Below the pieces are notes generated by a model. It did no database searches. It saw only the letters and a program-made list of their open reading frames with translations, and had not been told where the DNA came from. Positions 7,879-50,549 of a stretch of DNA of 64,000 nt are shown here, piece by piece. This stretch comes from Felis catus. Its lineage: Eukaryota. The stretch spans positions 92,382,001-92,446,000 of the forward strand of contig NC_058368.1 in the NCBI RefSeq assembly GCF_018350175.1, written 5' to 3'. The stretch's first letter is position 1; each line of letters opens with the position of its first letter. Made by a program: the position numbers and the translations under genes.

Positions 7879-7928
7879 TGATACGTTTTGAACCTGAACT
7901 CGGGTATCGGCTCCCTTGACGCATGGTG
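7879..7928 (+). pseudogene. Candidate exon, phase 1->0 (xIRFEPELGYRLP*RMV)
   Basis: tcacgcag| and |gtgagt; 4 CpG in 50 nt; one TGA at 7917. Confidence 0.5.
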
Positions 7929-8101
7929 GTGAGTGGTATCCTTGGGTATGATGCTGATGTATCCTGGCTCCTCACATGCAAACTCCCAGGTCTAAAATAA
8001 GACAAGAGTTGGTGGGTCTGCAGTTGTTGGCTCCTCTGGATTGCAGGAGAGGACCCCTCCGTTCATGTAGGCTGCTGAAAATACTAAAACTCAGATGTAC
8101 C

Positions 8102-8556
8102 TTTTTTTTTTTTTTTAAATTTTTTTTCAACGTTTATTTTTTATTTTTGGGACAGAGAGAGACAGAGCATGAACGGGGGAGGGCAGAGAGAGAGGGAGGC
8201 ACAGAATCGGAAACAGGCTCCAGGCTCGGAGCCATCAGCCCAGAGCCCGACGCGGGGCTCGAACTCACGGACCGCGAGATCGTGACCTGGCTGAAGTCGG
8301 ACGCTTAACCGACTGCGCCACCCAGGCGCCCCATCAGATGTACCTTTTTTAAAAAAAATGTATGTATGTATGTATGTATTTTGAGAGAGAGAGAAAGAGT
8401 AGGGGAGGGACAGACAGAGCGAGGGAGGCAGAGGATTCAAAGTGGGCTCTGTGCTGACAGCAGAGAGCCCCATGCGGGGCTCGAACCCACGAACTGTGAG
8501 GTCATGACCTGAGCTGAAGTCGGACGCTTAACCGATTGAGCCACCCAGGCATCCCT
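8102..8556 (-). mobile_element. Two tandem reverse CAN-SINEs (young 8102-8332; 8345-8556)
   Basis: Target tcagatgtacctttt seen three times. Confidence 0.92.
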
Positions 8557-8774
8557 CAGATACACCTTCTTGAGGAGTGAGGGAGGTGGAGCAGATTGGC
8601 ATCCATACATGATCCTGAAATCCCTGGGTCTTGTACGTATTTTTGCATCACTTGTTTGCTTGTTCAGTGGGAAAAGAAAAAGTAATGTAACTCCAAGCAT
8701 CGTTCTCACCAATCTTTGTGCCCTGAACCATCTTTGGGCTGGCCTTTCTCTTACTGTCCTGCCTGAAATTCCAG

Positions 8775-8916
8775 GCTCAGACCCTCCTAAGACTCACGGG
8801 GTGGAGATTTCACTACCCTGAAGTTGTGGTTTTCACCACCAGCAAAGAGTCCGGAAGGATCACCTCACTGCGGGGAACTGGAATTAACTATATACGAAAC
8901 CTGACACTTTCCACAG
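8775..8916 (+). pseudogene. Candidate exon, phase 0->1 (AQTLLRLTGWRFHYPEVVVFTTSKESGRITSLRGTGINYIRNLTLST)
   Basis: Pyrimidine tract plus ccag|, cag|gtaacc donor, 47 codons with no stop. Confidence 0.65.
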
Positions 8917-9149
8917 GTAACCTTATCTTTGGAGTTTCTCTGTGGACCTTTTCTTAAAGATCTGAGAATGACGTCCTGCCTGCTTCAGATTCTTTGTCCC
9001 CAGCTCTCTCTGCCCCTCCCTGTGCACACATGCGTTCTTTCTCTCTCAAAAATAATAAACAAACAAACAAACAAAAGAAAATGAGAGAATTTTAGGCAAG
9101 AACAGCAGGCTTATGTGGCCCTCTTGTCTGAGGCTCCCCCCAGACCCCT

Positions 9150-9546
9150 AAGGTTGCTGGATAAAATTCAGGATGCCAAGTTTGATTTCAGATAAACAGC
9201 AAATACTTTTTAAGTATAAGCATGTCCAAAATACTGCATGAGACATATACTAAAAAATTACTCATTACTTACTTGGATTTCAAATTTAACTGGACATCCT
9301 GTATTGTTATTTTTTAAAGTTTATTTATTTGAGAGAGAGAGAGAGCGGGGGGAGGGGCAGAGAGAGAGGGAGAGAGAAAGAATCCCAAGCAGGCTCCACA
9401 CTGTCAGTATGGAGACCGACGTGGGCTTGAATTCACACACCATGAGGTCATGACCTGAGCTGAAATCAAGAGTCGGATGCTCAACTGACTGAGGCATTAG
9501 GTGTTCCTCCTGTATTGTTATTTTCTTTTGCTAAGTCAGGCAACCT
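9150..9546. mobile_element. MER53 palindromic hAT MITE split by a reverse CAN-SINE (9310-9508)
   Basis: aggttgctggataaaattcaggatgcc...aaatttaactggacatcctgtatt...ggcaacct. Confidence 0.78.
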
Positions 9547-9699
9547 CTCCCTTCTGTCCAGATCATCCCCTGCCCCGACAGCAGAATCGAGAATGCAGGG
9601 CTGGACAGGAAAACCAGTAACTTTACTGCCAGAGAGGGTGGACTTGATTTGAGGTGGGAGGTGGGGGTGAAAACCTGTGGATTTGTCGGCTGACAGTGA

Positions 9700-12310
9700 T
9701 GAACTTGGTGGGGAATGGGAAAAATCATCTGTTTTACTAATGTGACATTGCAGTTTTCAGGGTGAGTGTTAAGCCAGCCAGACACTTAATGGAGAAGCTG
9801 CAGAAATGAGATCAGCCCTCCAGACATCCCTGGCTGAATGGAAAACCACACAGATGCATGCAGGATTGCTGAGAGAGCTGAGGGGAAAATAAATCCCAAG
9901 GAAGACCTAACTGATTGAAAATTTGAATATATTCCCAGACTTATCAATCAGCAGAGGTGGGAAGCTTTTGGGGCATAAGATGTTTGAGTCCAACCTCTCC
10001 TCAATGTCTTGACTGACCCAGGAAGCTACGTAGACACAGGGGAATCCACTAAAAGGCCATAGTAAAAAATACAAATAAAAATTTTAAAAATCTGTCCAGA
10101 AATATCAGTGACTGCACACCACAGGGGAGACAGATTTTACAGTGTAAGTCCAGGCAAGTTACAAAGAAAAGGGAAAAAACAATCCTCAGGAAAATGAAAC
10201 AGAATTAAAGTCGTTACAACATATTATGTAGCATGTCTGGTTTTCAACCCCAAATTATGAGACATACAAGGAAGCAGGGAAGTGTGATCAATATTCAGAA
10301 AGAAAGCAATCAAGAGAAACTAATTCTAAATGGGCCCAAAGTCCTCTAAGCATCCATTATAAATATGTTCAAAAAAGTTAAAGGAAATTAGGTTTAATTA
10401 TCTTAAAAAACTGAATGAAAACAAGAAATTGCAAAAGAGAAATGGAAACTATAAAGTATACAAAAACAAAATGCTATCTAGCAGTGAAAAGTAAAATAAC
10501 CCAATGAAGAATTCAGCGGATAGGTTCAACAGCAGATTTGAGATGGCAGAGAAAAGAATAACTGATCCTGGAGACAGTAGTTATCCAATTTGGAGAACAG
10601 AGAGATGAAATGAGATTGAAGGACAGAGGCTCAGAGGCCTGGGGAATAATATCAAGATAAGTCACTAATATTTGTGATAAGAATCAGAGAGGGAGAGAAG
10701 AGAGAGAAGGCGGGGGGGGGGGAAGGAAGCATCAGTGACCCCCAAACTCCCCAAATTTGATGAAAACCTCTAACCTTCAGATTCAAGAAGCTCAAAAAAT
10801 TCCATTAAGGCTAAACACAAAGAGAAACACACCTAGTCACGTCATAGTGTAACTGTGGAAAGATGTAAAGAGCAAGTCTTGAAAGCAGCAAGGGAGAAAT
10901 GACGCATCATTAAAGAGAAACAACGATGTGGATAGTGCCTGACTTATCAGAATATAAAGGAGCCTAGGAGGCAGTGGAATAGAGTTAAAATGCAGAGAGG
11001 AAAGAGAGCGTCATTCCAAGAACTCCCCACCCAATAAAACTATTATTCAGAGAATGAGAGTGAAGCAGACTTCCCAAATTAACGAACACTGGGAGTATAC
11101 CTGCCCTATAAGAAGTACTGAGGGACGTCCTTCAGGATGAAAGGAAATGACAGTAGATAGTAACTCAGCTCCTCCAGAAGGAATGAAGAGCTCAGGAAGT
11201 GATAAAGATGTGGGTCAGTAGAAAAGACTGTGTATATAAAGTTGTTTCTCTTCTTATTTCTTTAAAAAGCATACCCTTGTTGAAAATAATAAATGTAAGA
11301 CTGATTTGGGCTTATAAAATAAGTAGATTTAATACTTACGATGATAATAGTATGGAATATGGGGGAGGGAATGGAGCTTACTGGATCAAATTTGCTATAT
11401 TTTACCAAAATTAAGTCACTGTTGGGGCACCTTGCTGGCTCAGTCCGTAGATCACATGACTCTTCATCTACAGGTTGTGAATTCAAGCCCCACATTGGAT
11501 GTAGAGATGAGTTAAAAAAAATAACATCATAAACAAAATTAAGTCAGTATTAACCTGAAGTAGATGGTGATGAATTAATGGTAAATTGTAATTCTAAGAT
11601 AACTAACTAAACACACGCACACACACACATGCACACACACACACACCACAAACCAAAACTAAGCTTAAAAATTAGTAAAGGAATTAAAATAGTATACTAG
11701 AAAAAAATATATTTAACAGAAAGGAAGGCAGTAAAAAATACAATAAATAGGACAAGACATGTATGGAAAACAAATGGCAAAATGTCAGACATCAGTTCAG
11801 CTACCTCAATAGTTACATTAACAGGCAGAGATGATCAGACTGGATAAAGAGCAAGATCCTACTGTGTGCTGTGTATAAGAGATTCAGGTTTGTTTAAAGA
11901 CACAAAATTGGTTGAAAATAAAGGGATGGGAAAGGCACAGCTTGCAAGAGTAGCCATAAGAGAGCTGGAGTGACTATATAAGTTTCAGACAAAATAGACT
12001 TTTTGACAAAGAATATTACTAGAATGAATGAGGAATATTTCTTAATCATAAAGGGCCAATACATCAGGAAGCTCTGACATTTATAAATGATTATATATTT
12101 AACAACATCTTGAAAGTACATGATATAACAGGACAGAATAGAAAGGAGAAGTTGACAGTTCAGCAATTACGGTTGGAGATTTCAGTAGTCCTCTCTAATT
12201 AATAGAATTACTAGATAGAAAATCGGTAAGAATGTAAAAGAAAATCACCGTCAACTTGACCTATCTGACGTGTATAGAATACATCCAACCACAGCATGAT
12301 ATGCCGTCTT
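9700..12310 (+). mobile_element. Old L1 5' portion (decayed ORF1 and start of ORF2 endonuclease), with a short SINE at 11424-11530
   Basis: ORF1 motifs ccccaaatttgatgaaa/cagattcaagaagctca/ttgaaagcagcaag; ORF2 motif tcagacaaaatagacttt. Confidence 0.75.
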
Positions 12311-13906
12311 GTTATTGTTGTGTGTCTTGTCATTTTTGATTTAATATTGGACATTTTGTATAAAAGAATAGTAGAGCCTGAGGTAGATAGGATTTATGTC
12401 TAGAAGTGGGCATGGCTCTTCTCAGTGTTTCATGAGAGAAGACTGAGGCAATGCAGCTTCAGTTTAAGCTGATTGTAGGTTTCGTTGTTGCTATAATTGC
12501 CATTAATGTATCATAATATTTTAATTGCTTCCGGGGTGGACTACTGCCACTGCCTTGTACTTAATGTGGATTCTAGGGTGCTGGTGGATTTTTCTGTGTT
12601 CCCAATTCACCTGCAGCTTTAAGTAGTCCTGACTGCTTAAAAAGGGTCTTTCTCTGTGGCTCTTGTCCTTTCCATGTTGTATCCTGCCAGTTGTTGGTTA
12701 TTTGGTGGGATGCTTAAGCTTGGGGTGAGGTGGGAACTCTTCATTCTCTTGGTCAGTCTCACTGAGCCATATCCTGGGTACCTGGATTTGAAGAGTGGGC
12801 CCATTTTCAACATTCTTGTTCCCTCCTATGGCAGTCACACTCTGACTAGTTTATATGGAGAATTTGGGGCAGTAGAGAATTCCATTCTCTGCCCTGAATG
12901 GAAGCTGACCTCTGCTTTGTGTCAACACAGAAGCAGCAGTGGACTTTGCTTGAGATGAGTGACAGGCAAGTTGGCTCGTTCCTCCACAGCCCAACCCCGG
13001 TGTAGATTGCTGGCTTTTATTGCCAGTGCAAGGTTGGTGGTAGATTTGAGGTGGGTTGCCTGACTATGTCCTCAGAAGTTTACCTTTGCCTGGGACTGGG
13101 GGAGAGAGGGAGGGTTTTCTGCACCTTCACAAGTGATGTTGGCTTCTATCCCTGCCCAGAGGCAATGAATCTCTGCCTGGGCTTGGGGGTTGGGGGGTGG
13201 TGGGTGGGAGCACTTCCCACCCCTTCCCTGGGACCCACAGTCCTTGGCGCCCAGTTCCCTTCACAAAGGGCAAGTGGGTGGGGCTTTGTGTGCTTGTGCA
13301 CAGGGGTGGGGCGGTAGGGAGGTGGGGTGAGGGAGTGCAGACTTCCTGCATCAGGAGCAACTAGGGGTGTGACCCTCACTTTAGCCCACACTTGGCCTTG
13401 AAGAATTCCTTAAACATGCATCCATTTTCTGTTTACCCTCTAAGGCAGTTGTCTCTTTGGTCTGCGCTTTGCCACAGGTGAAGCAGTTCAAGAGTCTGGC
13501 CCCTCCTCAGGGCCTATCATCTGAAATTTAGTTCACCTGTCTGTCTGCCTTGCTGTTTCAGTGCTCTGGTGGGCTCAAGGCAAATCATGATTTTATTAAT
13601 GATCCAGCTTTCTGTTGCCTTCAGTCTGGGTTCAAGGACAGTTCTGTGACTTTCTGGGTTCAATCTGGGTTCAGGGACAGTTCTGTGACTTTCTGCATCT
13701 AAGGATCTATCCTGTTTCTAATTCTCTCTGTGAGTCTCCTGTCTCAGAAATAGGTAACAACTCCTCGCTCTTTTTGGGGAAGAAGATGATCATTAACTCT
13801 CAATGCACCTGAAAAGAAATGGAAGCCATCAAGACACCTCATCCTTCCTTCTTTAAGAGTTGAATGAAGAACTAAATGTTCTATAGTTCATAGTCCCAAG
13901 TCTACA

Positions 13907-14433
13907 ATTTTTTTTTTAATTTTTTTTTTTAACATTTATTTATTTTTGAGACAGAGAGAGACAGAGCATGAACAGGGGAGGGGCAGAGAGAGAGGGAGAC
14001 ACAGAATCCGAAACAGGCTGCAGGCTCTGAGCAGTCAGCACAGAGCCCGACGTGGGGCTCGAACTCACAGACCATGAGATCATGACCTGAGCCGAAGTCG
14101 GATGCTTAACCGACCAAGCCACCCAGGTGCCCCATCAAGTATACAATTTTTGTATCTCAATATTTACATAAACAGTTGTTCTTATTTATTTATGTATTTA
14201 TGTATTTATTTATTTTAGAGAGAGGGAACATGTGAGCAGAGAGAGGGGCAGTGGGAGAGGAAGAGGGAAAGGGAGAGAGAGAGAGAGGCAGAGGGAGAAA
14301 GAGAGAGAATCCTAAGCAGGCTCTATGCACAGAGTGGAGCCCAACACGGGGCTTGATCCCATGACCCTGGGATCATGACCTGAGCTGAAATCAAGAGTCA
14401 GATGCTCAACGATTGAGCCACCCAAGTGCCCCT
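13907..14433 (-). mobile_element. Two reverse CAN-SINEs (13907-14133; 14183-14433)
   Basis: Reverse SINE motifs. Confidence 0.9.
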
Positions 14434-15119
14434 GAACAGGTATTTTTTATAAAGGGGGGTCATGAAAAAAATGGGGGACTTGGTTGCAGATTTTGAGTGA
14501 CTTTTGCTTGGAATAATTTCAGATTCTTAATGGTTGTTTAAATTATACCACCTTGTATTATATAGAACATATGGTTTGTTTAAAATGTTACAACTCTGTG
14601 TATGACTTAGGTATGTGTACAGTTAAGCATTTGGAAGAGACGGACTTTGGCCAGTAGAATTTTATTTGATCTTCTCATCACATGACTTTAAAAATGAAAT
14701 GAAGAGTTTCAGCTTTCACTTTTTAATTCTTTTGGCAAGATACGATGAAAAGAAATCCAAGGAGAGTAGGAAGATGTCATGTGAAATGCCAAGAAAATGG
14801 ATTAACGAGGAAAAAAATAATCTGCTTTAAGGTGGAGTGATTCAAATATTAAGAAAATGATCTCATTCGTTTTGGTGACAGAGATGTTTTGGTGGTTTTC
14901 TTTCTCTTGATAAAGAACAGGTACTCTGGGAGCACAGGCCACAAACCTCTGACCCACGGGTGAAGCTTTAAATGTCTAGAGAAGGAATGGTAAACAAGCA
15001 AGGATGCAAAAAAAAACTCACAAAATTCATCCTTAGAAAGAAATATTTGGTTTAAATGCCTGCAAGAACTTTGTGGCACAGTGAGGCAACTGTGTTTGCA
15101 ATTAAGAAAATATGAAACT

Positions 15120-15366
15120 TGCGTGCCTGGGTGGCTTGTCAGTTGAGCAGCTGACTCTTGATTCAGCTCTGATCACGATCCCAGGGTCATGGGATGAAAC
15201 CCAGCGTCAGGCTCCCTGCTGAGCATGGAAGCCAAGTTATATCCACATAGGACCCTGCCCTTGTGATGACTATTTAATGTTGAACTTCGCAGCTTTATTT
15301 AGATGTAGAATAAACAGAATCTTCACACAGGATTTTATTTTTAAAGTTTATTTATTTTGAGAGGGA

Positions 15367-15418
<52 letters not shown>

Positions 15419-15545
15419 CCCAAGCAGGCTCCACACTGTCAGCACAGAGCCTGAAATGGGGCTTGATCTCACAAACTGTGAGATTATGGCCTGAGCCGAA
15501 ATCAAGAGTCAGAGGCTTAAACGACTGAACCATGCAGGTGCCCCA
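15120..15545. mobile_element. CAN-SINE 5' fragment (+, 15120-15230) and reverse CAN-SINE (15334-15545)
   Basis: SINE motifs, long (GA)n. Confidence 0.85.
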
Positions 15546-15586
15546 GGATCCTATGTTTAAAATTATGTGTCTCTTTTACTCCCTAG

Positions 15587-15656
15587 GTTTTATGATATCA
15601 TCTAATACTCCTGCCTACAAAATTCTAAGATCCTCCTAGAATAGAATTACTTTTTG
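15587..15656 (+). pseudogene. Candidate exon, phase 1->2 (GFMISSNTPAYKILRSS*NRITF)
   Basis: ctcttttactccctag| and ttg|gtgact; one TAG. Confidence 0.45.
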
Positions 15657-16369
15657 GTGACTGTAAAAATTATATGAAATTCAAATTTTGGTGTCCATAA
15701 ATAAACTTTAATGGAGCGCAGCCACCTCATTTGTCACATGTCGTCAGTGTCTGCTTTTGCTATACAGTGGCTCTGCTGAGCAGGTGTCCCAGCATGGGCC
15801 CACAAAACCTAAAATGTTTACTCCGGTTCTTTACAAAGTTTGCTGACCCATATTACACATCAGGATGCCTCAAACTGTAACATACATACCAATCACCCAG
15901 GGATCTTACTAACATGTAGATTCTGATAATCTGAGAAGCGGTTAGTGAGAAGGAGCTCCGAAAGAGATATAGCCCTCACCACCTTCTCTCCTGGTGGCTT
16001 CAGGCTTCTCCCTTCTCACTTCTTGAGGCTTCTATTCCCTTCTTGGTTACCTGGACCCAGAGGAATGTGGGCCACAAGAAATAGAAGGGCAGCCAGCAAG
16101 ATCCCCTTGAGAGCCTGGGCAGGATGGAAGAGGGGTGGTGGGAGGGGGCAGAGTATGGAGGAAGCCGTATCCCACCCTGAAATATGCCCCACTGGCTCCA
16201 CATGGCATCTTCTCCCCTCCCCTACTTGGCCTGAAATTCCCATGATTAAGTGTAGGTAGGTACAGAATAGACTTCCTTTTGTTTTGTTTCAGTAACACAG
16301 GCTGATACGGCCACCTGTTTCCATGGCTTCACCTACTATTTTTATATTGATAACTTCCAAACTATTTCT

Positions 16370-17370
16370 TGTCTGGGCTTTCTTCTAAGTATTGGCTCGC
16401 CTGCTTGGAATTTCCACTTGGACGTAGCACATTCAACTTAGATTTAATATTTCTTCTAAAGGAACTCGTGGTCGTCAACTCCAGACTGCTTGTTCTCCAG
16501 CGTTTTCTGTCATAGTAAATGATTAGCACCTTCCCCATCTTGAGACATGGGAATCGGCTTTGCCTCTCCTCCTTAATCCCCCATGAGCTATTATTATGAC
16601 CAAATCCTAAATATGTCTGGGATCCATCCACTTCTTTCTTGTGGTCCCATTCTTTTTTTCTTTTTTGTTTGTTTTTTTGTTTGTTTAAAGAATCCCAAGC
16701 TAACAGTTCAGAGCCTGACATGGGGCTCGAACTCATGAACCAGTAGATTGTGACCTGAGCCGAAATCAAGAGTCTGATGCTTGACAGACTGAGCCACCCA
16801 GGTGCCCCTTGTGGTCCCCATTCTAAGTCACGACCATTTGTCACCTGTTCACCTACAATAGCTTTATGTAGAATCTCTGTATTTAATGTTGCCATGCTAA
16901 AATTGGTTGTCCTCGCTGTGGCCAGAGTAATCTGCTTAAAACAAAAAGGTGATCATATCCCACTTCCTCAGAATAAGGTCCAAGCTCCTCATTATGGTCT
17001 CCATGCCCTGCATACCTGTCCCCTTCCTGTGTCTTTGGCCTCTCTTTGTGGGTTTACTCCCTCGCTTCCTGCGTTCCAGCCATTTTCAATTTTCCCCGTG
17101 TTGTTTTTCAGCAAGTCGTTTAACGATGATGCCTATCATTCTCCTTCTACCTGTCATAAAATGCCTTTTATTTCTAGTCTTAAAATTCGCTTCCCCTGGG
17201 AAGCCTTTCCTGAGCCACCAGATGAAGTCAGATATCCCGGGTATTTGTCCTCATAGCATCCAGCTCCTGTTCAGTGTCCCCTAAAAGTCTGCAAGCCCTG
17301 TGAGGTCGCAGACTGCAGCTTTTCCACCACTGCGTCCTAAGCACCTAGTAGAATGCCTGCCGTCAATAAC
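16370..17370. mobile_element. L2 relic with a reverse CAN-SINE (~16650-16808)
   Basis: L2-like motifs ggccagagtaatctgcttaaaac and cttcccctgggaagcctttcctga. Confidence 0.6.
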
Positions 17371-17405
17371 TATCCATGAACAAACATCAAGAATAGAGAC
17401 AACCA

Positions 17406-17620
17406 GGGGCACTTTGGTGGCTCAGTCGGCTAGGCGTCTGACTTCGGCCCAGGTCGCGATCTCACAGTTCATGGGCTCGAGCCCCGCATCAGGCTCTGTG
17501 CTGACAGCTCAGAGCCTGGAGCCTGCTTTGGATTCTGTGTCTTCCTCTCTCTCTCTGCCCTCCCCGGCTCACACTCTGTGTCTCTCTCAAAAATAAATAA
17601 ATATTAAAAAAAAAAAAGAA
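17406..17620 (+). mobile_element. CAN-SINE
   Basis: TSD aagaatagagacaacca/aagaatatagacaacca. Confidence 0.92.
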
Positions 17621-17745
17621 TATAGACAACCAATTTGATTTGGATGCAAATCATGTGAATGTTTAGGAATCACAGAGTAGTTTCTAGTATCTGTATCTTG
17701 TAGAGAATCCATTTGAAAGCCTACTATTACTGTGGCCCCCTGTAG

Positions 17746-17852
17746 GGTTTCAGTGTTTCCCGCGTAACCCGGGGTGGTTGTCCAAAATTTTCCAACAGGA
17801 TATCAACTTCCTGCTTAGAGGCGTGATGTGCTGGATCCGAGGGAACAACAAT
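17746..17852 (+). pseudogene. Candidate exon; reading frame ambiguous (phase 2->1 with 2 stops, or phase 1->0 fully open)
   Basis: ccccctgtag| and aat|gtaaaa (weak donor); 5 CpG in 107 nt. Confidence 0.45.
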
Positions 17853-18169
17853 GTAAAAGAATTTCCAGATCCACGTGCCCCTCACATTGTCGAGGGACTG
17901 AGTCCTCAGCTCTAGCTATCCTTCTGAATGAGGTTTTGAGACAACCTTCATTCTCAGACACAATTCCATGACATGGACTTTCCCTTTAAGGGTCTTTGGG
18001 ATTTAGTTTTACTTCCCAGGGATTAGAGACCTTGTCTCGGGTGTCTCAGCTTCAGTAACACTTGTGGTTCCATTCTGATGGAACATGATGGCAACTTCAT
18101 ACCCACTTCATAAAGTGGGAGGTGGCACTTTACTGAAAATATACTGTGTCAGTCAATATTAATAATCCT

Positions 18170-18575
18170 AGGTGTTAGTAACATCTAAGATTTATTGGAT
18201 GACTACTATGTTCCAGGAACTGTTCTAATCGCTTTACACTTATTTTTTTTAATGTCTATTTTGAGAGAGAGAGGGAGGGAAAGAGGGCAGAGAGGGAGAG
18301 AGAGAATCCCAAGCGGGCTCCAAGCTGTCAGCACAGAGCCTGACATGGGGTTCGATTCCACAACCATGAGATCATGACCTGAGCCGAAATCAAGAGTTGG
18401 ACTCTCAACCAACTAAGCCACCCATGTGCCCCCTAATCGCTTTACACTTCCTAATTCCTGCAATTCTCCTCCAACTATATAAAATACGGACCATGGTTAA
18501 TCCCATTTTCGGGTGAGGAAATTGAGGTTAACTTGCCCACAGACATATGGCTGTTATGTAGAGGAGCCTGGATTT
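18170..18575 (-). mobile_element. MIR relic split by a reverse CAN-SINE (18243-18432)
   Basis: tcccattttcgggtgaggaaattgagg MIR core; TSD ctaatcgctttacactt. Confidence 0.75.
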
Positions 18576-37876: not shown

Positions 37877-37907
<31 letters not shown>

Positions 37908-38580: not shown

Positions 38581-38620
<40 letters not shown>

Positions 38621-39828: not shown

Positions 39829-39964
39829 TTCCGAGGTTTCAGATGAGTAATGCAGCTAAGAGAGACTGAGTAATTTGTCCAAAGTCACTCTATTAGTATT
39901 TGGATAACTCGATGCAATTGGGATGAGGGCCCAGGTCATTGGTATCCATTTCAACATCACCTTT

Positions 39965-40150
39965 ATTATTATTTTTTTTGAGAGATAGAGTGATCATGAC
40001 CAAGTGTGAGGGAGAGGGAGAGAGAATCTTAAGCAGTCTCCATGCTCAATGCAGAGACTGAGGTGGGGCTTGATCTCATAACCATGAGATCATGACCTAA
40101 GCCAAACTCAGGAGTTGGACACTCAACTGAATGAGCCACCCAGGCACCCC
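39965..40150 (-). mobile_element. CAN-SINE
   Basis: Reverse SINE motifs. Confidence 0.85.
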
Positions 40151-40319
40151 TAAATGAATTTTGCTAGTGACCAGAATGCCAACAATTCTTTTACCTTCCT
40201 CAGGTAAACATGGGGGAAACCCAGAGATTACTGTCTGGAGTTTATATCAGTATTTAGCACATGTAGTATTTATTAATCAGTATTCTCTTTCTGTCTCTTT
40301 CTCTTGGCTATGTCCTTAG

Positions 40320-40376
40320 ATCCTACAGTTTTTAAAGACATAGATCTTGAATTACGACCCAAGCATTGATCTGTTG
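40320..40376 (+). pseudogene. Candidate exon, phase 1->1 (DPTVFKDIDLELRPKH*SV)
   Basis: Pyrimidine tract plus ccttag|, ttg|gtaagt; one TGA. Confidence 0.6.
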
Positions 40377-41257
40377 GTAAGTTGAGAAAGTACTGATAAA
40401 TGAAAAAAAAAAATTGTATTCCTGTTAACACAATGTCTTACACTGAATGTGATTTATTTTGCCGAGTCGCAGAAGTCAAATGGTTTTATTTTAACTTTAA
40501 AACATTCTTTGATCTTTTGCTTACAATTGGGAAAAAAAAAACAACCCAAAACTTGCTGAGTCACTGTTGAAAATATTAATTTCTTTCCTCCTTTTGGCCT
40601 CCTTTTAAGAGAAAATTACTCAGGAGGGTGACCCTTTGAAACCAATGAAACAGAGTAAAATAAATCTGAGAAAAGAGAAGATAGAAGAGATGGATAATGA
40701 GGATGATAAAAACGCATGCCACTGTGGCATTTTCAAATTACTTGGCAGTCAATTTGACTACTGACTTTGAAATTTATTCATTATCTCAAATGGCTGCTGT
40801 TGTGACATTGCCAGTAGCAACTCCTGCAAATGCCTCAGAAATATTAATAGAATAGGGCTTGCTTGGCACCCAGGACCGTGCCAAGGCCCCTGGGGTAAAA
40901 AGATAATTGAACTAGATCAATCCTGCCCATTGACTCCTGCCCATTCACAGCCATTCCGGGAGGCAGGACATTGCAATCTGAAGGGAAGGGGGGGGTGGGG
41001 AGGGCATAAATCTGGATGGCATGCAGTCAATACTAGGCTGTGTGGTTCAGAATTCAAACTCATCTTACAACTTCTTTACTCAGGTGAATTTCAGCGGATG
41101 AGAACATGCTGAGGTCCATAGCGCTGCTTCCTTAAATCAGTGTGTTAGAATTCTCCCTCGTAGTCTCTTTCATCTACTTTATAAACTGTAGAAGCACAAA
41201 TTTAGGGCAATATTCATCATTTTCTAGTGAGAGGAATTTAAAAAGGGTTTGAAGGCA

Positions 41258-41480
41258 GGGGCACCTGGGTGGTTCAGTCGGTTGAGCACTTAACTCTTGA
41301 TTTTGGCTCAGGTCATGATCTCTCAGTTGGTGAGTTTGAGCCCCCACATCAGGCTCTTTGCACTTACCTCGTGGAGACTGTTTGATTCTCCCTCTCTCCC
41401 TGTCTCTCTGCCCCTCCTCTGCTTGCAATCTCTCTGACTCTCTCAAAATAAATAAGTAAACTTTAAAAAAATAAAAACGA
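41258..41480 (+). mobile_element. CAN-SINE
   Basis: TSD aaaaagggtttgaaggc/aaaaacgatttgaaggc. Confidence 0.9.
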
Positions 41481-41623
41481 TTTGAAGGCCAAGCTGAGCA
41501 TATGAAGTTTAAGGTATTAAATGGTCAGCTCTGTAGCTATAATATTTAATATTAATTTGCTTATGCTATAAATTTAACAATATATCTGTAAAAGGAGATT
41601 ATTTTAAAGACGTTTTTTTCTAG

Positions 41624-41826
41624 GCTCATCTTTTTCCAGAGGACACTTTGTCATCTGCCTACATTAATCTGCCTCATCCGATTACTGAAGATATCACCTT
41701 TCTAAATGCTTATATGATGCCATCAGTGGTTGGGTCACAAGTACCCATTTGCTTACCATTGAAAAAGTTATGAAAAAAATGTATTCTCAGTGTGTTGTTG
41801 AGATCTGTACAACATAACCACTCAGT
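41624..41826 (+). pseudogene. Candidate exon, phase 1->0 (...RYHLSKCLYDAISGWVTSTHLLTIEKVMKKMYSQCVVEICTT*PLS)
   Basis: tttttttctag| and agt|gtgagt; 3 stops. Confidence 0.55.
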
Positions 41827-41923
41827 GTGAGTCTTTCAAAGCTTTCAAATGCTGGTTTACCAAAACATCCTATTGAATTTGTGTTAAATTTATTACTCTC
41901 TAGTATTTTCAGCTGAGTATTCT

Positions 41924-42110
41924 TTTTTAAAAATGTTTATTTTTGAGAGATAGAGTGAGCAGGGGAGGTGCAGAGAGAGAGAGAGAGGGACAGAAGATCT
42001 GAAGCGGGCTCCAAGCTAACAGCAGAGAGCCTGATGCAGGGCTTTAACTCACAAACTGAGATCATGACCTAAACTGGAGTCAGACACCAGACTGAGCCAC
42101 CGGTTGAACC
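41924..42110 (-). mobile_element. CAN-SINE
   Basis: Reverse SINE; TSD tcagctgagtattctt/tcagctaagtactctt. Confidence 0.88.
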
Positions 42111-42154
42111 TCAGCTAAGTACTCTTATACATCCCAAACTAACACTGACTTCGG

Positions 42155-42550
42155 TCATGTCAGGCTATAGTGGCGGAGACTATAATGCTCGCCAAATACG
42201 ACATATCTTTTCCTACATTTCCTAGCCCTCTTGCAATGAGATGAGATTCGGTGAGAGTCCTGGCCAATGCAACGTGAGGGGCAAGTGATTATGTCTCTTT
42301 CTGGCATGGGATAGAGCAAAGTCCTTGGGCAAACTTCTAGTACTGTTGTTGGCAAGCCTCACATTCCACGTGGTGCCCTAACAAGATAGCAGAGGCTGTG
42401 TTGTCCTGGATTCCAGAGTGACCATATGGAATTGAGGTCTGTCAACCCGTGGGGGCCATGTAGTATGAGCAAGAAATAAACAAGTTGTGTTAAGCCAAGA
42501 AGACTCTGATGCTAATTTGTTACCACAGCACGACCTTGTCTACTCTCACT
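42155..42550 (+). mobile_element. Old MLT1-family LTR
   Basis: catttcctagccctcttgca...tggccaatg; gagcaagaaataaac...tgtgttaagcca...tttgttaccacagca. Confidence 0.7.
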
Positions 42551-42866
42551 ATTTGTATAAAACAATAGCTGGGGTGCCTGGTGGGCTCAGTTGATAAAGC
42601 GTGGGACTCTTGATCTTGACGTCATGAATTCGAGCCCCACATTGGGTGTAGAGATTACTTAAAATCTTAAAAAACAAAACAACAACAACTGAGAGAATGC
42701 CCTATCATGTGACATACAATGGTTTAGACTTGAATAAAAAGTCACTCACAATTTAGTAAGAAATAGTTTGAGACCATACTTTACCTTATATGCAAGGCAT
42801 ATAGTATGCCTTTTGCAGAAACAGGAAGCCTGTTAAAGGTCATGTCTTTAAAGAGCCCCTTTTAGA

Positions 42867-43631
42867 AATACAAATCAAAACCACACTCAGGTATCACCTC
42901 ACGCCAGTCAGAGTGGCCAAAATGAACAAATCAGGAGACTATAGATGCTGGAGAGGATGTGGAGAAACGGGAACCCTCTTGCACTGTTGGTGGGAATGCA
43001 AATTGGTGCAGCCGCTCTGGAAAGCAGTGTGGAGGTTCCTCAGAAAAAAATAGACCTACCCTATGACCTACCCTATGACCCAGCAATAGCACTGCTAGGA
43101 ATTTATTCAAGGGATACAGGAGTACTGATGCATAGGGGCACTTGTACCCCAATGTTCATAGCAGCACTCTCAACAATAGCCAAATTATGGAAAGAGCCTA
43201 AATGTCCATCAACTGATGAATGGATAAAGAAATTGTGGTTTATATACACAATGGAATACTGCGTGGCAATGAGAAAAAATGAAATATGGCCTTTTGTAGC
43301 AACGTGGATGGAACTGGAGAGTGTGATGCTAAGTGAAATAAGCCATACAGAGAAAGACAGATACCATATGGTTTCACTCTTATGTGGATCCTGAGAAACT
43401 TAACAGGAACCCATGGGGGAGGGGAAGGAAAAAAAAAAAAAGAGGTTAGAGTGGGAGAGAGCCAAAGCATAAGAGACTGTTAAAAACTGAGAACAAACTG
43501 AGGGTTGATGGGGGGTGGGAGGGAGGAGAGGGTGGGTGATGGGTATTGAGGAGGGCACCTTTTGGGATGAGCACTGGGTGTTGTATGGAAACCAATTTGA
43601 CAATAAATTTCATATATAAAATAAAAAAAAT
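42867..43631 (+). mobile_element. Young 5'-truncated felid L1 (ORF2 C-terminus plus 3'UTR and polyA)
   Basis: Perfect TSD aaagagccccttttaga (42850-42866 / 43632-43648); open frame TPMFIAALSTIAKLWKEPKCPSTDEWIKK. Confidence 0.95.
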
Positions 43632-43770
43632 AAAGAGCCCCTTTTAGATTTGTAAGTAATTATTCATCACACACTAATAAATTATGTTCACCCTAATACC
43701 ATTTCCATCAGGTCTCCTATTTTCCATGTAACCAATAACATCAACAGCTGGTCACTGTATTGTCATTTAG

Positions 43771-43915
43771 AGCAGATTTAGTACAGGACTCTGAAAAATA
43801 ATGGTCTTTAGATTGCTGGCATGGGGACCCACAATTTTCTCAGAAGGTCTGTGTAAACATTTACCCGGATTCATACGCAGGCTCAGAATTGGATGGTTAA
43901 GTGCCAGAATTGTGG
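43771..43915 (+). pseudogene. Candidate exon, phase 0->1 (SRFSTGL*KIMVFRLLAWGPTIFSEGLCKHLPGFIRRLRIGWLSARIV)
   Basis: tgtcatttag| and gtgg|gtaaag; one TGA in 48 codons. Confidence 0.55.
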
Positions 43916-44829
43916 GTAAAGTGGATCCGGAGGCACTTCTATTTGTACCGAAGACAATGTAATATCAGATAATAGACCCTGTCTGTGATAGCAGAATCCC
44001 ATTTCTCCTCAAGGTATTTACCAGTAATTTCCCCAAAGATGCCTCCATGTGTCCACCCAGCAGTTTGTCACCTGTGGGCACCATGCCACGTCTGCCCTTT
44101 CTCGGGCTCTTACTCTAGCTGTCTCTGGCCCACAAAGCTGCTAGATGATGGGAGAACCCCTGCCATTTCCCATCAGGAGGACAGCCCTGTCTGTGCTTGG
44201 GAATTGTCTTCAGAGTCTTCAAAATCCATAAAGTTGTGTATTTTCAGAAGCGTGAGAGCCTTCCCAGCTGTGAGGCACACTGTGTCATTTGGGTCATGGA
44301 GCAATTGTGCTTTGTCTTGAAAATCTCACAGAAGAAAAAAATCTCTAAACAGTATTCTTCTACATTATAATTCTCAGTCTCTTAATAACAGGGTTGGTCA
44401 AACTCAGGAAGCTGGGAGAGAAACAGATAACACCTTTCACACTTTGCAGCTTTTTTCTGGTGTCACACCCCAGCGGAAAACGATTTCCTTCTTCAATGAT
44501 AAAACAAAGTCTGACAGCCTTTCCCTGGACATTGCGCGCATGTGCGTGCACGCATGTGCGTGTGTGTGTCTGGAAGGTGGGAGAATCAGCACCAGCAGAA
44601 GAAGATGTCCCTGTTAAAACTGAAGCCCCCCCCCCCCCCCCAGCATGTGGTTTTACTCTTTTGTGACGGTGACTTGCTTTATATTCTAGAGAGTGTCATA
44701 ATCATATCAGAGAAACCGAGGGCACATGAAAAAGATCAATCTGAGTCTTTCAAATGAAACGAAACATAGGGTTTGTAGAAATCTGAAAAAAGAAAGATTT
44801 ACTTAATGGAAAATCTCCAGGCGGAAGGT

Positions 44830-45270
44830 AAACCACGTGTCCATCAACAGATGAATGGATAAACAAAACATGGTGTATTTAGACAATGGAATATTGTTTG
44901 GCCTCAAGAAGGAAGGAAATTATGACACCGTGCTACCACATGGATAAACCTTGAAAACATTATGCTAAATGAAGGAAGCCAGATGGAAAAGGACAAATAC
45001 TGTCTGATCCCACTTACATGAGGTACTTAAAACAGATAAATTCATGGAGACAGAGGTGGAATGGAGGTTAGGAGGGGCTAAGACGTGGGGGCGGGGAAGG
45101 CAAGCGTTTGTTTAACGGCCACAGAGCGTCTGTTTGGAATGATTGAAAAGTTCTGTAAATGGATGGTGGTGATGGTTTACACAGCATGGCGAAGGTCCTT
45201 CATGCCCCTGAATTGTACACCTAAAAATAGTTAAAATGGGAAATCTTATGCATGTTTAATCGCACACACA
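44830..45270 (+). mobile_element. Old L1 (L1MB-like) 3' end
   Basis: tgtccatcaacagatgaatggataaacaaaa; ggatggtggtgatggtt. Confidence 0.85.
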
Positions 45271-46019
45271 AAATCTCCAAAGGTCCCAATCCTCTGAGTA
45301 TGCAGATCATTCTCATGGAGGAGAAACCAGGGGGTTGAAAGATGCTGATTTGCCTTTGCTAGATGGTCAACTGCTTGAGGACAGGAGTGTTCTCTTGTCA
45401 TTGTAAATGCCACAGTATCTAGGAGAGTGTCTTCACTATACCAAGACTCAATGAATCCCGGCTGAATTGAATTAGATGGTTGCCTACAGGATTTCTCAAT
45501 TTAATTTGCCCTTGGAGGAGAGGAGTAAGTAGGTTTCCTGATCAAATACAGGGAAGTGCTTTTAAAGGCTTGTTTTCTTGGAACAGTTTGTATAGGCTTG
45601 CCAGTGTTTGACTGAGGGCTGCGTGCTTGGAAACTTGGATGGAAGCCAGGCAAAGCAATGAGAGAGAAGCCATAGGTTGAGGAGTGAGTGGTCAGAATTC
45701 AATCTGATGTGGGGCCCTGGCAAAGGGATGTTCAAAGGTTAATAGCACAAAGATATTGGCTTTGAAAAAGAACATTCTTTGAAAGAATCCAAAAGGAACA
45801 AACTTGATTGGAATTGATTGTACAGGATCTCTACTGTGTAAAAAGAGAAGACAAGTGGAAAGCACTTACGTTGGATAATATTCCTCTTTCGCTGCCAGAA
45901 AACACAAGTGACGAAAGCAGCTGATGTTTATAGCAGCTGAACTTTTCCAAAAATTTGTTTAGAAAGACTCTTTTCTTGGATTTTTCCCTTGGACACCAAT
46001 GATATCTCTACCTGCAAAG

Positions 46020-46097
46020 ATAAAATAAAGTAAAATAAAATAAAATAAAATAAAATAAAATAAAATAAAATAAAATAAAATAAAATAAAATAAAATA
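46020..46097 (+). repeat. (TAAAA)n microsatellite
   Basis: About 15 units. Confidence 0.95.
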
Positions 46098-46349
46098 GCT
46101 TTCTGGGAGGTTGCACTTTTAGGGGTCTATAATGTAGCATCCAGATTTTGCAGCATAGCTTGAAACTTTATTTTATAGCAAATTTAATCAAATAATTTTT
46201 CCTTTAGAGAATTCCTTACAGGTAACACATGAATATATTCTCACTGTATTAAAAATTCAGATAGTGGCTGAGTACAAAGAGTTAACATGAAAAGTATACC
46301 CCTTCTAATTCTCCTGCCTGTCTGTCTATCTATCTATCATCTATCTTTA

Positions 46350-46535
46350 TCTGAGGGGGCGGGGAGAGGGGCGGAGGGAGAAAGAGAGAGAGAGAGAGAG
46401 AGACAGGGAGAGAGAGAAAGAGAGAGAGAGAATCTCAAGCAGGCTCCACACTCAATGCAGAGCCTGATGTGGGGCTTGATCCCATGACCTGAGCCAAAAT
46501 CAAGAGTCAGATGTTCAATCCACTGAGCCACCTGG
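46350..46535 (-). mobile_element. CAN-SINE
   Basis: Reverse SINE motifs. Confidence 0.85.
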
Positions 46536-46707
46536 GGAAGGTGCTCCTCTCCTGTCTCTTTTTAACAGTAAGGTTCAGACTGTGTTCTTGCAGATGGCTC
46601 CCTTAGATTTGCACACATGTGTAAATATATACTGAGCTTTTATTTTTATCAATGTTTTTACGTACATGGGATCGAAATTCTTTTTCTAAAATCTGCTTTT
46701 GCTGCAG

Positions 46708-46837
46708 GTTTTGAAAGCAGTGGAATGACTGAAAGAGATAACAGACTTTATGTAATCTACACACCTAAAAACCAGTGTTTGTATCTTGAGGAATTACCTA
46801 CGTTACTTAGATATTTAAAGGAACAAAGCTCGACAAG
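46708..46837 (+). pseudogene. Candidate exon, phase 1->2 (GFESSGMTERDNRLYVIYTPKNQCLYLEELPTLLRYLKEQSST)
   Basis: ctgcttttgctgcag| and aag|gtgatt; no stop. Confidence 0.65.
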
Positions 46838-47308
46838 GTGATTTTCAAGCTATTCGTGTGAAAGGTGTGGAAGTTTATGGGACCAGAAGGTAATAGGAAA
46901 ACTTCCACACAACACAGACATGACGTCTCCTCACTGTGAAGTCACATCTTGAGGCTTACATATGAAAAGTACAGGCAACTTGTTTTTCTCGGACTGGTTG
47001 ATACCTTAAGAAATTAACACCTTTTGTCTCTGTGTGAAGTTCTGCATTTTCCTTCCTCCTCTGTTCATTAAAGTGAGGAATCACAGCAAACTGAATTAAT
47101 TTTCCAAACTAGAACATGCATAATAATTAAAGCCAGGTATTTTGGAGATCTTGAGCCTGGAGAAAATTAGATTAGCTGCAGAATTCCCGTCGAAGTCATA
47201 ACCCTCAATTTAGAGCCTGATTGTATCTAGAAGAGAGAAGGGGTGTTACCTTCAGAATTATTTTCCAATTATTGTGTTACATCTTAAAATATTTTGTTTG
47301 TTTTTTAG

Positions 47309-47336
47309 ATATTTGGGTTTCAACTGGAAAAATCAG
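47309..47336 (+). pseudogene. Candidate small exon, phase 2->0 (RYLGFNWKNQ)
   Basis: ttttgtttgttttttag| and cag|gtgctt; alternative donor tag|gttggt at 47346 is the same phase but adds VL*. Confidence 0.5.
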
Positions 47337-47614
47337 GTGCTTTAGGTTGGTTGCTACGTTGGCACAAGGCAGTCCCTGTCTTTGAGCATTTGATCTACAG
47401 ACAGATGCACAGAGGTTGCATTTTATATCAATATGGTTGGGATGTCTTCCCCCACCTCAAAACATGGAGAATCTCTCCAACTTCTCTGCTTCTCTGCATG
47501 TCAATCTTCCCCAGAGTTCAAAAGGGCTTACAGGGTGGGATGGAGACTCAGCGGGTTTGGGGCCTCAGCTCCTACTTAGAACCACGTCAGCTGCATTTTA
47601 GGATAAGAATCTTG

Positions 47615-47835
47615 TGTCTGGGTGGCTTAGTTGGATAAGCATTCAGCTTCAGCTCAGGTCAATGTCTCGCGGGTCATGAGTTCGAGCCCCGCATCGGGCT
47701 CTGTGCTGACAGCTCAGAGCCTGGAGCCTGCTTCGGATTCTGTGTCTCCCTCTCTCTCTCTGCTCCTCCCCGACTTGTGCCCCCTCTCTCTCTCTCTTTC
47801 AGAAATAATAAATGAATAAAACTTAAAAAGAAAAG
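47615..47835 (+). mobile_element. CAN-SINE
   Basis: TSD aagaatcttgtgtctgg/aagattcttgagtctgg. Confidence 0.9.
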
Positions 47836-48638
47836 ATTCTTGAGTCTGGTGAACCATAGACAGTCAGTAGTCAACACATGTGCATTCCCTCACCTTCCTT
47901 TTTCCTGTGTCAAATGATTCCCAAACAGGTGTGTGCCAACTGACAGTGCTTCGTTTAAAAAAAAAAAATGTTGGTCACTAATAATGCTGTGTACATTTAT
48001 TTTTAATTGCTTTAAACACCTTATCACCCAGCATTTACTAAGTGCCTATTTTGTGTAAAATACTCAGCATTTATTTCCACCTTTTTTTGGCGAGGGAGAA
48101 ATACATACTTTATTACCGTTAGCTTTGGACTTAAGCAGGACCATATAAGCAAAGATATTTGGATGTCATAGGAGATTAGGTGTTTTATGGCTTTTTTTTT
48201 TGTCCTTTGGCCAAACTACCTGTCATCAAGGGGGTTGATTCTTGATGAGCTGGTTTAAAGCAATCAAGGTTTAGGAGGCCAGACTGAGGCAGATCAAGCA
48301 AATAAGTCTGTTAATGATCTGTGCATATGGAGTTTTACAGCTTCCAAAGTGTACCTACTGGTTTTAATTTCTGGGAGCTACAGTTTAAGGAAAACCAACT
48401 TGGATGGCAAAAGATGGAGACGGTATTAAACTGAGGAGGTTCTTAAATGTCTGAAAATGCAAATGACTACGGCATTTCTTAATGAGGTTGCTATTTTTAA
48501 AGACACATACACGAATGCAGCCAATCTGTTTCATAGCACAAGGTGACTTTTATGTTATTGCTCCTTCTTTGCTTTATTTTCTCCTTTTTCTCACCTTCCA
48601 CTTAAGCATTTCTTTTCCCCCTCTTTTTCTTCCAGTAG

Positions 48639-48783
48639 GATCTACTCAGCTATGGCAACTGGGTTAGGAAGCACAGATTAGGAAATGCTCTTGGTTTGCC
48701 TATGCTGGTCAAGAGGTTTCAGGGGTCTTCCATTGGATTCCTGGAGGTCAGCAATGGCCACCTTCATATTTGGAAAGATTCAG
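48639..48783 (+). pseudogene. Candidate exon, phase 0->1 (DLLSYGNWVRKHRLGNALGLPMLVKRFQGSSIGFLEVSNGHLHIWKDS)
   Basis: Strong pyrimidine tract, cagtag| NAGNAG acceptor, cag|gtgaat donor; 48 codons with no stop. Confidence 0.65.
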
Positions 48784-48959
48784 GTGAATAGGAACACTGC
48801 TGGGGTTTAGAAGATGTAGGTGTGAGAGCCATACATGCATTAACAGTTGGGTGAACTAAGCAGGTGATTTGATCTCTCTGGGCTGCCATCTTCTTAGTCT
48901 ATAAAGTGGGGGGGGGGGGGGTAGAAGACAAAATTGACACTGACCCTGTGGAGGTCAGG

Positions 48960-49990
48960 TCACAATAGCTATCGAAATTATAAACGCACACACCTTTTGA
49001 TCAATCTCACTTCTGAGAATTCATCCTTCAGATTGTGAAATCAGAGCCGTAACAAGATATTCACTGCTGCGTTGTTTGTATTATTAGAAGTCTAGGAGCA
49101 GCACAGTAGAGGATTGTTAAATGTAGTACATCTGTGCTACAGAATATTACACAGCTGTATTAAAGAGAGAAGAAACTCTTCAGTGCTGACGTGGATGTTC
49201 AGGATACATTGTTAAATGAGAAAATCAAGATTCAGAAGAGTGTGTGTGATGTATAATCTTTTGTTGAAAAGAAGGGAAGAGGGACAAGAATATACATTAA
49301 TGCTTGATCTTACTTGTACGGAGAAACTCTGGAGACCATTTACTTCCTTATTGAGCCTGATCACTGAGGATGGAAACCCCACCGCAGGTCTCCATCGATA
49401 TGACTTTGTTTTTCCACTCTCTCCAGTACCATTTCTTTCCTCTTCTGGGACTGTCATTCCCAAGCAAATGGCTTGATGGCTCATTACAGGAACTTCTCAA
49501 AAGACCCAAGTCCTCATTGGAAAACATCAACCATTTGTGCATTAGGGTTCTGAATCTCTTAGTCTCAAAATCCTCACCTGGATTGTTTCATCAATCCCTG
49601 ACTGTTGTATTGTGATTCTTTACCCAGTCTCGGTCAAGTCTGAGCCTTAAGAGACAAGCCTTAAACCAAACTTCCAATTCTCAATACATTTTTACCTTAC
49701 CTTCCCCTCTCCGAGGAGGCACCACAAAGCTTTGGGCTGTGGTGTCCTCTCTCTCACTGATGCAATGAACTCAGCTTCATCTCATCAACAAACTGTGTTG
49801 GTGATTTAGGCAGAACCAGCTTTTGTTAGGACAAAAAGGGGTTGCCTGGTAGGGTGGCTATATGGGTGTAAGGGAGCTATCGATGATGGAAAGGAGGGGG
49901 GCACGACACTTCAGTGAGTATTTTTGCACTATTTAATCATGTGAATGCATTATTTATTCAAACGTGAAATGCAATAAAAGGAAATCTTAT
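48960..49990 (+). mobile_element. Ancient L1 3' relic interrupted by an ERV1-like LTR (~49320-49805)
   Basis: atattcactgctgcgttgtttgta and ttcaggatacattgttaaatgagaaaa L1 motifs; LTR end aactcagcttcatctcatcaacaaactgtgttggtg. Confidence 0.55.
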
Positions 49991-50056
49991 TTTGAATACA
50001 TAAAAATATAAAATAAAATCAGGGGTTAGTTATTAAGTCACTAAATTTCCTTTCAG

Positions 50057-50549
50057 TGCTGTGGTTCCATTACAATTTAATATTGTCCACGAAGAAGATG
50101 ATTTCCAAAATTGCAATATTGAAGACAGCTGCTCAGTTGCTGTCCTGTTGTAATGGGATAGCTTTCAAATCCCCAGTTTATCGATCCACCCGCATTGCTA
50201 ACACTGATTTCAATTAACATTTGTCAGAGCTAAAAATAAAATTTTATCTACAGCCCAGGACACTTTTGACAGGATGATTTTCAACATTGTGACTTTTTAG
50301 CATAGGAGACTGTGGTTTTAATTGGAAAACCAATTACTTGAACAACTACTCTGCTCCTGCCCTTTAACATGATTTATATTAAAAGAGACCTGTATTTTTG
50401 GAAGGTTATAATGATTATTATGCTTAGTGACTTGTAGGAATCCAGGTGTCCCAGGGAGCATCACAGCTAACCTCAAAGGACTCTGAAAGTACTCTCAGAG
50501 CCTCAGGAGACTGGAGTTCACAGGCTGTTGTTGAAGTTGAGGAGTTGAA
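50057..50549 (+). pseudogene. Candidate large exon, phase 1->2
   Basis: atttcctttcag| acceptor; first 52 codons open; 7 stops later; gaa|gtaatg donor. Confidence 0.5.

Follow-up and report, generated by a model that had tools for sequence, protein, structure and literature searches.

Selenoprotein P is a mammalian mRNA with many decoded in-frame stops, all of them UGA and all requiring a SECIS element. Mammalian unitary pseudogenes have several exons in which premature stops of each of the three types occur, accompanied by frameshifts and splice losses; their definition rests on aligning them with an intact ortholog. False-positive ab initio gene models, which occur in intergenic DNA, have AG/GT boundaries and phase imposed by the method, without homology or codon signal. 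In the mammalian readthrough genes OPRL1, OPRK1, MAPK10 and AQP4, as excerpts of PMC4132726 present them, a single in-frame UGA followed by CUAG lies within a longer frame, is conserved among vertebrates and is read through at up to about 31%. Stop-removing U-to-C editing exists in the organelles of hornworts, lycophytes and ferns; according to excerpts of PMC12548569, it turns many genomic stops into Gln or Arg codons in the RNA of conserved, recognizable genes, with PPR proteins sought as factors, and it is the only system of this kind that we found.

The DNA analyzed here (the window, 64 kb of felid DNA) had been read in an earlier note as containing an 18-exon model of about 1,136 codons and 46 stops on the plus strand, whose span is taken here as 7917..50553. 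In this model there are in-frame stops within a longer frame, as in the readthrough genes, but dozens of them, of three types and outside any such context; stops are numerous, as in selenoprotein P, but TAA and TAG occur at background frequency, and no SECIS was found. Where organellar editing acts on recognizable genes, this is mammalian nuclear DNA without one. The multi-exon layout and the mixture of stops recall unitary pseudogenes; here, however, no ortholog was found, and a stop frequency of 4% without frameshifts is, unlike the state of unitary pseudogenes, beyond the reach of neutral decay. The likeness to false-positive gene models extends to the imposed AG/GT boundaries and phases and to the missing homology and codon signal. 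Ab initio gene finders forbid internal stops, whereas here stops were tolerated; long chains thereby become easy to build, and hence the apparent paradox.

We consider it very probable that no frame-preserved gene exists here and that the span is intergenic felid DNA carrying a chance exon chain. Such a chain would form when exon-like segments are picked by eye between AG and GT dinucleotides and boundaries and frames are then selected so that phases agree; stops would follow at the random-DNA rate in large segments and, in small ones, at the rate left by choosing the lowest-stop of three random frames. The paradox of many stops in an intact frame arises because model-building itself imposes it.

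The genomic setting is felid intergenic DNA flanked by a YTHDC2-like gene, about 110 kb 3' of which the span sits, and a KCNN2-like gene, whose SK-channel exons start about 560 kb beyond the span. By self-comparison, about 28% of the span is repeat-masked, and the whole behaves as intergenic DNA. The YTHDC2-KCNN2 interval is termed intergenic in excerpts of a human study (PMC12295717), and titles and abstract openings of the papers listed for this interval describe no gene there. MCC was considered as host or neighbor of the window and ruled out, as the MCC family maps to C1 172 Mb.

The exon totals of the earlier model came without exon coordinates, and a reconstruction of 15 segments was used, with four of the 15 frames anchored on the earlier note, the other 11 taken as the lowest-stop frame, and one segment lacking a GT end; it comprises 911 codons and 21 stops, the final stop included. 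The three reads that had been quoted as fitting Gln or Arg at their stops were all located on the plus strand, each in an AG/GT-bounded segment running from phase 1 to phase 1. GI*KDELRLL starts at 32934 (segment 32899..32991; TAG at 32940, then AAGG), RPKH*SVG at 40355 (segment 40320..40376; TGA at 40367, then TCTG, with the last G of the read at the donor junction) and TGL*KIMV at 43783 (segment 43712..43915; TGA at 43792, next base A). The last of these segments has three stops in every frame and splice scores of 2.3 and 0.6 bits, which are weak on the crude weight matrices from which all splice scores here derive. The end of the model also holds, a TAA-terminated frame being present at 50551-50553. 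Other plus-strand candidates include an early "exon" at 8775..8916 with one open frame of 47 codons and no Pfam match, and a large segment at 17746..18121 whose frames hold 5, 6 and 6 stops, so that none is favored, and which is single-copy by genome search. The proposed last "exon" (50057..50553) has seven internal stops in its best frame, two of which, a TAG and a TGA, stand side by side at 50425-50430.

Stop densities match chance expectations throughout. In the unique DNA of the span, 5.43% of 30,521 triplets are stops, and the large exons, for which the earlier note had suspected a near-random density, do carry 29 stops in 530 codons by its counts (5.47%; probability of that few, 0.57). 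Its suggestion of wrong frames and near-random stops thus stands and extends to the small exons. Their 17 stops in 600 codons, again by the earlier counts, fall short of the 32.6 expected if one random frame is fixed in advance (P = 0.002), but match what comes of picking the best among three frames in each of 15 random pieces of 40 codons (14.9 ± 3.4 stops). In non-coding DNA of such composition, stop densities of 2-5% are to be expected. The dinucleotides are likewise abundant: the 30,605 unique bases of the span contain 2,165 AG and 1,759 GT, one per 14-17 bases. Fitting exon lengths and "surviving" splice sites had been offered as possible marks of a preserved frame, but both follow from choosing boundaries among dinucleotides this frequent. 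Phase fit and intact AG/GT are uninformative when the boundaries come from the same sequence.

Every control yields like chains. A program linking phase-consistent AG..GT segments was run on both strands of five flanking stretches, two of which overlap; all ten control chains comprised 17-25 phase-consistent exons and 1,191-1,757 codons with 1.17-2.18% stops, and all were cleaner than the earlier model (4.05%). Chain scores were 71.5 for the plus strand of the span, 74.6 for its minus strand and 120.5 for the YTHDC2 region, the positive control, in which chaining recovers the real exons. The plus-strand score exceeds the control median, with 2/18 controls higher in one run and 2/10 in another, and 71.5 was reached by two of ten controls and four of 20 Markov simulations.

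Codon structure gives the same picture. Over 890 codons of the reconstruction, the codon-position chi-square was 15.9 against a null of 19.4 ± 7.6, and 323 of 500 null sets reached it; YTHDC2 exons gave 73.5 (0/500 null sets) and kept a value of about 44 when substitutions were simulated until some 4% of codons were stops. The excess of G at the first over the second codon position (G1 minus G2) was 0.7 in the reconstruction versus 10.7 in the YTHDC2 exons. A sliding codon-periodicity scan found no outlier, with a plus-strand maximum of 7.4 bits in the span versus 7.8-10.6 in ten controls, although the scan has low power, real YTHDC2 exons scoring only -3.5 to 12.7 per 50 codons. With control chains of this kind, no codon signature and no homolog found, the premise of a preserved-frame gene is not supported. 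The exact 18-exon model presumably behaves as the reconstruction does, and probably no diverged fossil lies beneath any part of it.

Homology searches were negative within their reach. None of 66 plus-strand translations, covering all three plus frames of the candidate regions, matched Pfam at cut-off, although one YTHDC2 exon used as positive control returned HA2_C (E 7e-15); chaining and codon scans extended to the minus strand as well, the Pfam search being of the plus strand. Two sub-threshold matches, RhoGAP-FF1 (14.4 bits, cut-off 30.1) and TIG_2 (14.7, cut-off 23.4), were set aside. The other searches covered four segments in one frame each, a mammalian positive control being part of the Pfam search only. 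Word-index searches gave 11 candidates for segment 48639-48782 (proteins of 85-2,000 aa; none at E 0.01), two for 47309-47551 (550-1,750 aa; none at E 0.1) and two for 46707-46889 (1,751-5,000 aa; none confirmed). The last segment, with stops as X, had no phmmer hit at E 0.001 among 1.84 billion representatives, and segment 48639..48783 had none in PDB at E 1. For segment 47309..47554, 273 pattern matches in metagenome contigs yielded no confirmed one, and the ESM Atlas gave no usable hit (recognition 1161), a result that shows neither absence nor novelty.

The best-surviving alternative, though an unlikely one, is that real exons are among the segments, derived either from an ancient decayed gene or from a spliced non-coding RNA, with many hidden frameshifts and mostly wrong frames read; the DNA would then be neutral sequence or a non-coding transcript, and the stops would carry no meaning. 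Several observations lean this way: the chain score above the control median, a slightly raised CpG observed/expected ratio (0.30 in reconstruction segments, 0.21 in unique background, 0.41 in YTHDC2 exons), good splice-site scores at 46708, 47309, 48639 and 48783, and a low-stop sub-chain at 46708-50215 whose phases fit and which has a single stop over some 240 codons. This most gene-like sub-chain opens with segment 46708..46889 (one stop in its best frame), and includes 47309..47554 (open for 82 codons, but with a poor donor at -2.0 bits) and 48639..48783 (open for 48 codons, with strong scores of 8.8 and 5.0 bits), all on the plus strand and all without a homolog. Its rank is not exceptional: its 4.5-kb window, chosen post hoc, is equaled or exceeded by 12 and 18 of 214 windows, which places it within the top 6-8%.

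Divergence cuts both ways for a decayed gene. In simulations, a stop frequency of 4% takes about 0.4-0.5 substitutions per site. Local repeats show one frameshifting indel per 14 substitutions, and on that calibration 3,408 bases would have gained 97-121 of them; so many would wipe out any signal tied to the frame and could let a homolog escape searches confined to one frame. At the same divergence, survival of all 68 splice bases has a probability of 1e-12 to 1e-15, and the model as described therefore cannot be a neutrally decayed gene. The residual codon structure in an ancestral frame that a unitary pseudogene would keep is absent from the reconstruction (15.9 versus about 44 expected at 4% stops), Pfam scans of the candidate regions in three plus frames gave nothing at cut-off, neither these scans nor the searches of four segments elsewhere revealed an intact homologous protein, and the one segment searched against its own genome (47309..47554) has no paralog. 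That an unannotated, very old unitary pseudogene lies here, best kept at 46708-50553, seems improbable.

It is extremely improbable that a functional gene keeps its frame under constraint here, with some 46 stops overcome by readthrough or editing. Were it true, a mammalian nuclear mRNA with all three stops recoded en masse would represent a novel form of gene expression. What speaks for it is the look of three reads where Gln, Arg or Trp fit, although, as the earlier note adds, a single change separates every stop from one of these, and the existence of stop-removing U-to-C editing in plant organelles. A-to-I editing can turn a stop into nothing but Trp, and an mRNA with such stops would be degraded by nonsense-mediated decay. 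A constrained frame should retain codon structure, of which the reconstruction has none, and the stop types follow the background (9 TGA, 6 TAG and 6 TAA against 638:416:604) where a selenoprotein would use UGA only; Rfam found three tRNA-like matches in the 64 kb and no SECIS. Nor is the context leaky (UGA then CUAG or similar): the stops within the quoted reads are TAG-A, TGA-T and TGA-A, TGA-CTAG occurs at 0/20 internal stops of the reconstruction and TGA-C at 2/20, and two stops are adjacent. Even at the efficiency of the best mammalian case in excerpts of PMC4132726, about 31% at one UGA-CUAG, readthrough of 46 stops would come to 0.31^46 = 4e-24. We see no reason in this evidence to believe in mass stop recoding, and a YTHDC2-KCNN2 nuclear transcript whose dozens of recoded stops yield a homolog-less protein of about 1,100 residues is extremely improbable. 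That the gene is intact and its stops are assembly errors is equally improbable, as nothing was found in its favor, an intact gene of about 1,100 codons should show codon structure and homologs as its YTHDC2-like neighbor does, and 13/13 chosen exons of that neighbor are open in the same assembly, so that base errors cannot account for stops at 4% of codons.

Sampled words of 47842-50600 were all present in six sequencing runs of unrecorded kind, and a fraction of 0.22-0.77 was present in 14 runs recorded or guessed as RNA; both describe the presence of words only and are silent on transcription, splicing and editing. In strand skew (T/A 3.8%, G/C 7.1%) the span resembles both flanks, and the skew is thus regional rather than specific to the span.

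The many stops within an apparently preserved frame across the 18-exon model proposed at 7917-50553 (+) are most probably an artefact of how the model was built from intergenic DNA. The window occupies C1 92,382,001-92,446,000 in the genome examined (2.43 Gb, 71 contigs), and its flanking genes are YTHDC2, with YTH-domain exons at C1 92.277 Mb (+ strand) and, upstream of them, exons encoding an HA2-containing DEAH helicase, and KCNN2, with SK-channel exons at C1 92.99-93.04 Mb; both are named by domain content and by human gene order. The interval between them is termed intergenic in a human GWAS paper (PMC12295717).

Stop triplets make up 5.43% of the unique + strand DNA of the span, and the model's three large exons, at 5.47%, stand at chance level (P = 0.57), as the earlier note had suspected of them; with 29 stops against a best-of-three-frames expectation of 21.7 ± 4.4, their chosen frame is no better than an unselected one. 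The 15 small exons fall below the fixed-frame expectation (2.83% stops, P = 0.002), and 15 random 40-codon pieces read in the best of three frames carry 14.9 ± 3.4 stops versus the model's 17. Splice dinucleotides are abundant, with 2,165 AG and 1,759 GT in the 30,605 unique bases of the span. A dynamic program seeking the best phase-consistent AG..GT chain, with splice-site score rewarded and stops penalised, found chains of 17-25 exons and 1,191-1,757 codons, with 1.17-2.18% stops, in all ten control runs (five 42.7-kb flanking stretches, two of them overlapping, on both strands). Every stretch tested thus offers an in-frame, splice-intact chain with fewer stops than the proposed model, and the lack of a net frameshift together with intact splice dinucleotides, put forward as signs of a preserved frame, loses its force. 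The span itself scores 71.5 (+) and 74.6 (-), in the upper half of controls and not an outlier: control chains score 44.6-89.9, with two of ten above the + strand, and Markov simulations 58.2 ± 12.6, with 4 of 20 reaching 71.5. With a longer minimum intron the span scores 65.3 (+) and 72.5 (-) against 40.5-80.8 in 18 partly overlapping controls, two of which are higher. The YTHDC2 region reaches 120.5, its true exons being recovered in a mixture with false ones.

The puzzle of decay without frameshifts holds arithmetically. Simulation on YTHDC2 exons indicates that about 4% stops requires about 0.4-0.5 substitutions per site; in the region, each frame-shifting indel is accompanied by 14 substitutions (2,567 mismatches and 183 non-3n indels in 16 repeat-copy pairs, a rough calibration, some pairs being SINE clusters). 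At that divergence a stretch of 3,408 bases should carry 97-121 frameshifts, and the chance that none of the 68 splice bases is lost is 1e-12 to 1e-15, so the model as described cannot come from a neutrally decayed gene. The resolution is most probably that frame and splice sites were chosen during model building rather than preserved.

The three reads quoted for recoding do exist (stops TAG 32940, TGA 40367 and TGA 43792), each in an AG..GT-bounded segment running from phase 1 to phase 1. The model's exon totals were taken as stated, the note itself giving no exon coordinates, and 15 segments were reassembled by hand (one without a GT end), with four frames fixed by the note's three reads and its end coordinate, the other 11 being set to the lowest-stop frame; the result comprises 911 codons, with 21 stops counting the terminator. 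Base composition by codon position shows no signal in this reconstruction (chi-square 15.9 over 890 sense codons), compared with 19.4 ± 7.6 for random segments matched in length and read in their best frame; of 500 such sets, 323 reach the reconstruction's value. Thirteen YTHDC2 exons give 73.5 over 702 codons (0 of 500 null sets reach it) and still about 44 when substitution-mutated to about 4% stops (0.4-0.5 substitutions per site). The signal is therefore to be expected of any gene whose frame was preserved, whether it decayed or is recoded, and its absence from the reconstruction counts against the proposed constrained frame.

There is a small chance that some segments are remnants of an ancient, frameshifted gene or exons of a spliced non-coding RNA, in which case the stops would call for no special mechanism. 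The most gene-like part consists of phase-consistent AG..GT segments (46708-46889, 47309-47554, 48639-48783 and the start of 50057-50553) that hold a single stop across about 240 codons; three acceptors are good and one donor is poor. Its 4.5-kb window was picked after looking, and 12 of 214 control windows reach it under one setting and 18 under another. CpG observed/expected in the reconstruction's segments (0.30) lies between the values for background (0.21) and for YTHDC2 exons (0.41). None of 66 + strand translations (22 candidate regions, three frames each, stops as X) reached a curated Pfam cut-off, and two weak matches far under it were dropped; one YTHDC2 exon was recognised (E 7e-15). 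For four of the most gene-like segments, searched in one frame each, no homolog came from word-index searches, from phmmer against 1.84 billion representatives, from PDB, the ESM Atlas or metagenome contigs, and the cat genome gave only self (next best E 0.40 and 0.48). As the non-Pfam searches had length limits and lacked a mammalian positive control, these negatives make a young pseudogene or a conserved gene less likely but carry no weight against a very old fossil with frameshifts.

A-to-I editing of stops gives Trp only, and a transcript with such stops would be a target of nonsense-mediated decay. Recoding or editing of many stops in a preserved frame is highly improbable: the reconstruction's stops (9 TGA, 6 TAG, 6 TAA) resemble background, none of its 20 internal stops lies in a TGA-CTAG context, two lie in TGA-C, two stand next to each other, and no SECIS element is among the Rfam matches in the window. 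Efficient mammalian readthrough is described as needing UGA-CUAG, at up to about 31% (PMC4132726), which compounds to 4e-24 across 46 stops, and U-to-C stop removal is described from hornwort, lycophyte and fern organelles (PMC12548569).

The window is dense in tRNA-derived SINEs, presumably of carnivore type, in keeping with the note's word 'felid'; three Rfam tRNA matches barely over the gathering score (2891-2981, 52603-52675 and 62365-62449) sit in SINE heads and were rejected as tRNA genes on inspection. ORF2-like fragments at 35700-37450 (+), 42866-43620 (+) and about 54700-58500 (-), which we take to be LINE-1, share 70-96% similarity with copies in the flanks. An old interspersed repeat at 49350-49830 has 23 matches elsewhere in the genome (67-89% identity); the chaining program took it as an exon, so false exons arise easily. 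ORFs of at least 90 aa in the window are repeat-derived or featureless by inspection, except for an LSM-family processed pseudogene at 22860-23110 (- strand; Pfam LSM match weak, E 0.012, under cut-off), whose parent is presumably LSM5. Its two adjoining parts correspond, at 94% and 90% identity, to a pair of exons at C2 123.66 Mb separated by 1.3 kb, and its frame shifts where they join, possibly through a skipped small exon.

A Fez1-family gene, presumably N4BP3, lies about 190 kb from the YTHDC2 YTH exons (C1 92.08-92.28 Mb), and an MCC-like gene, MCC being YTHDC2's human neighbour, is at C1 172 Mb; this would place a synteny breakpoint directly upstream of YTHDC2 in cat. Across about 250 kb of intergenic DNA (C1 92.29-92.55 Mb) the + strand has a consistent excess of T over A and of G over C, about 8-11% when the two are summed, which may be replication-related or due to read-through transcription. 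A unique stretch richer in GC and CpG (about 51% GC), in which no gene was identified, runs from 62900 to 64000 and on beyond the window end (L012 1-700), and could be a regulatory element.
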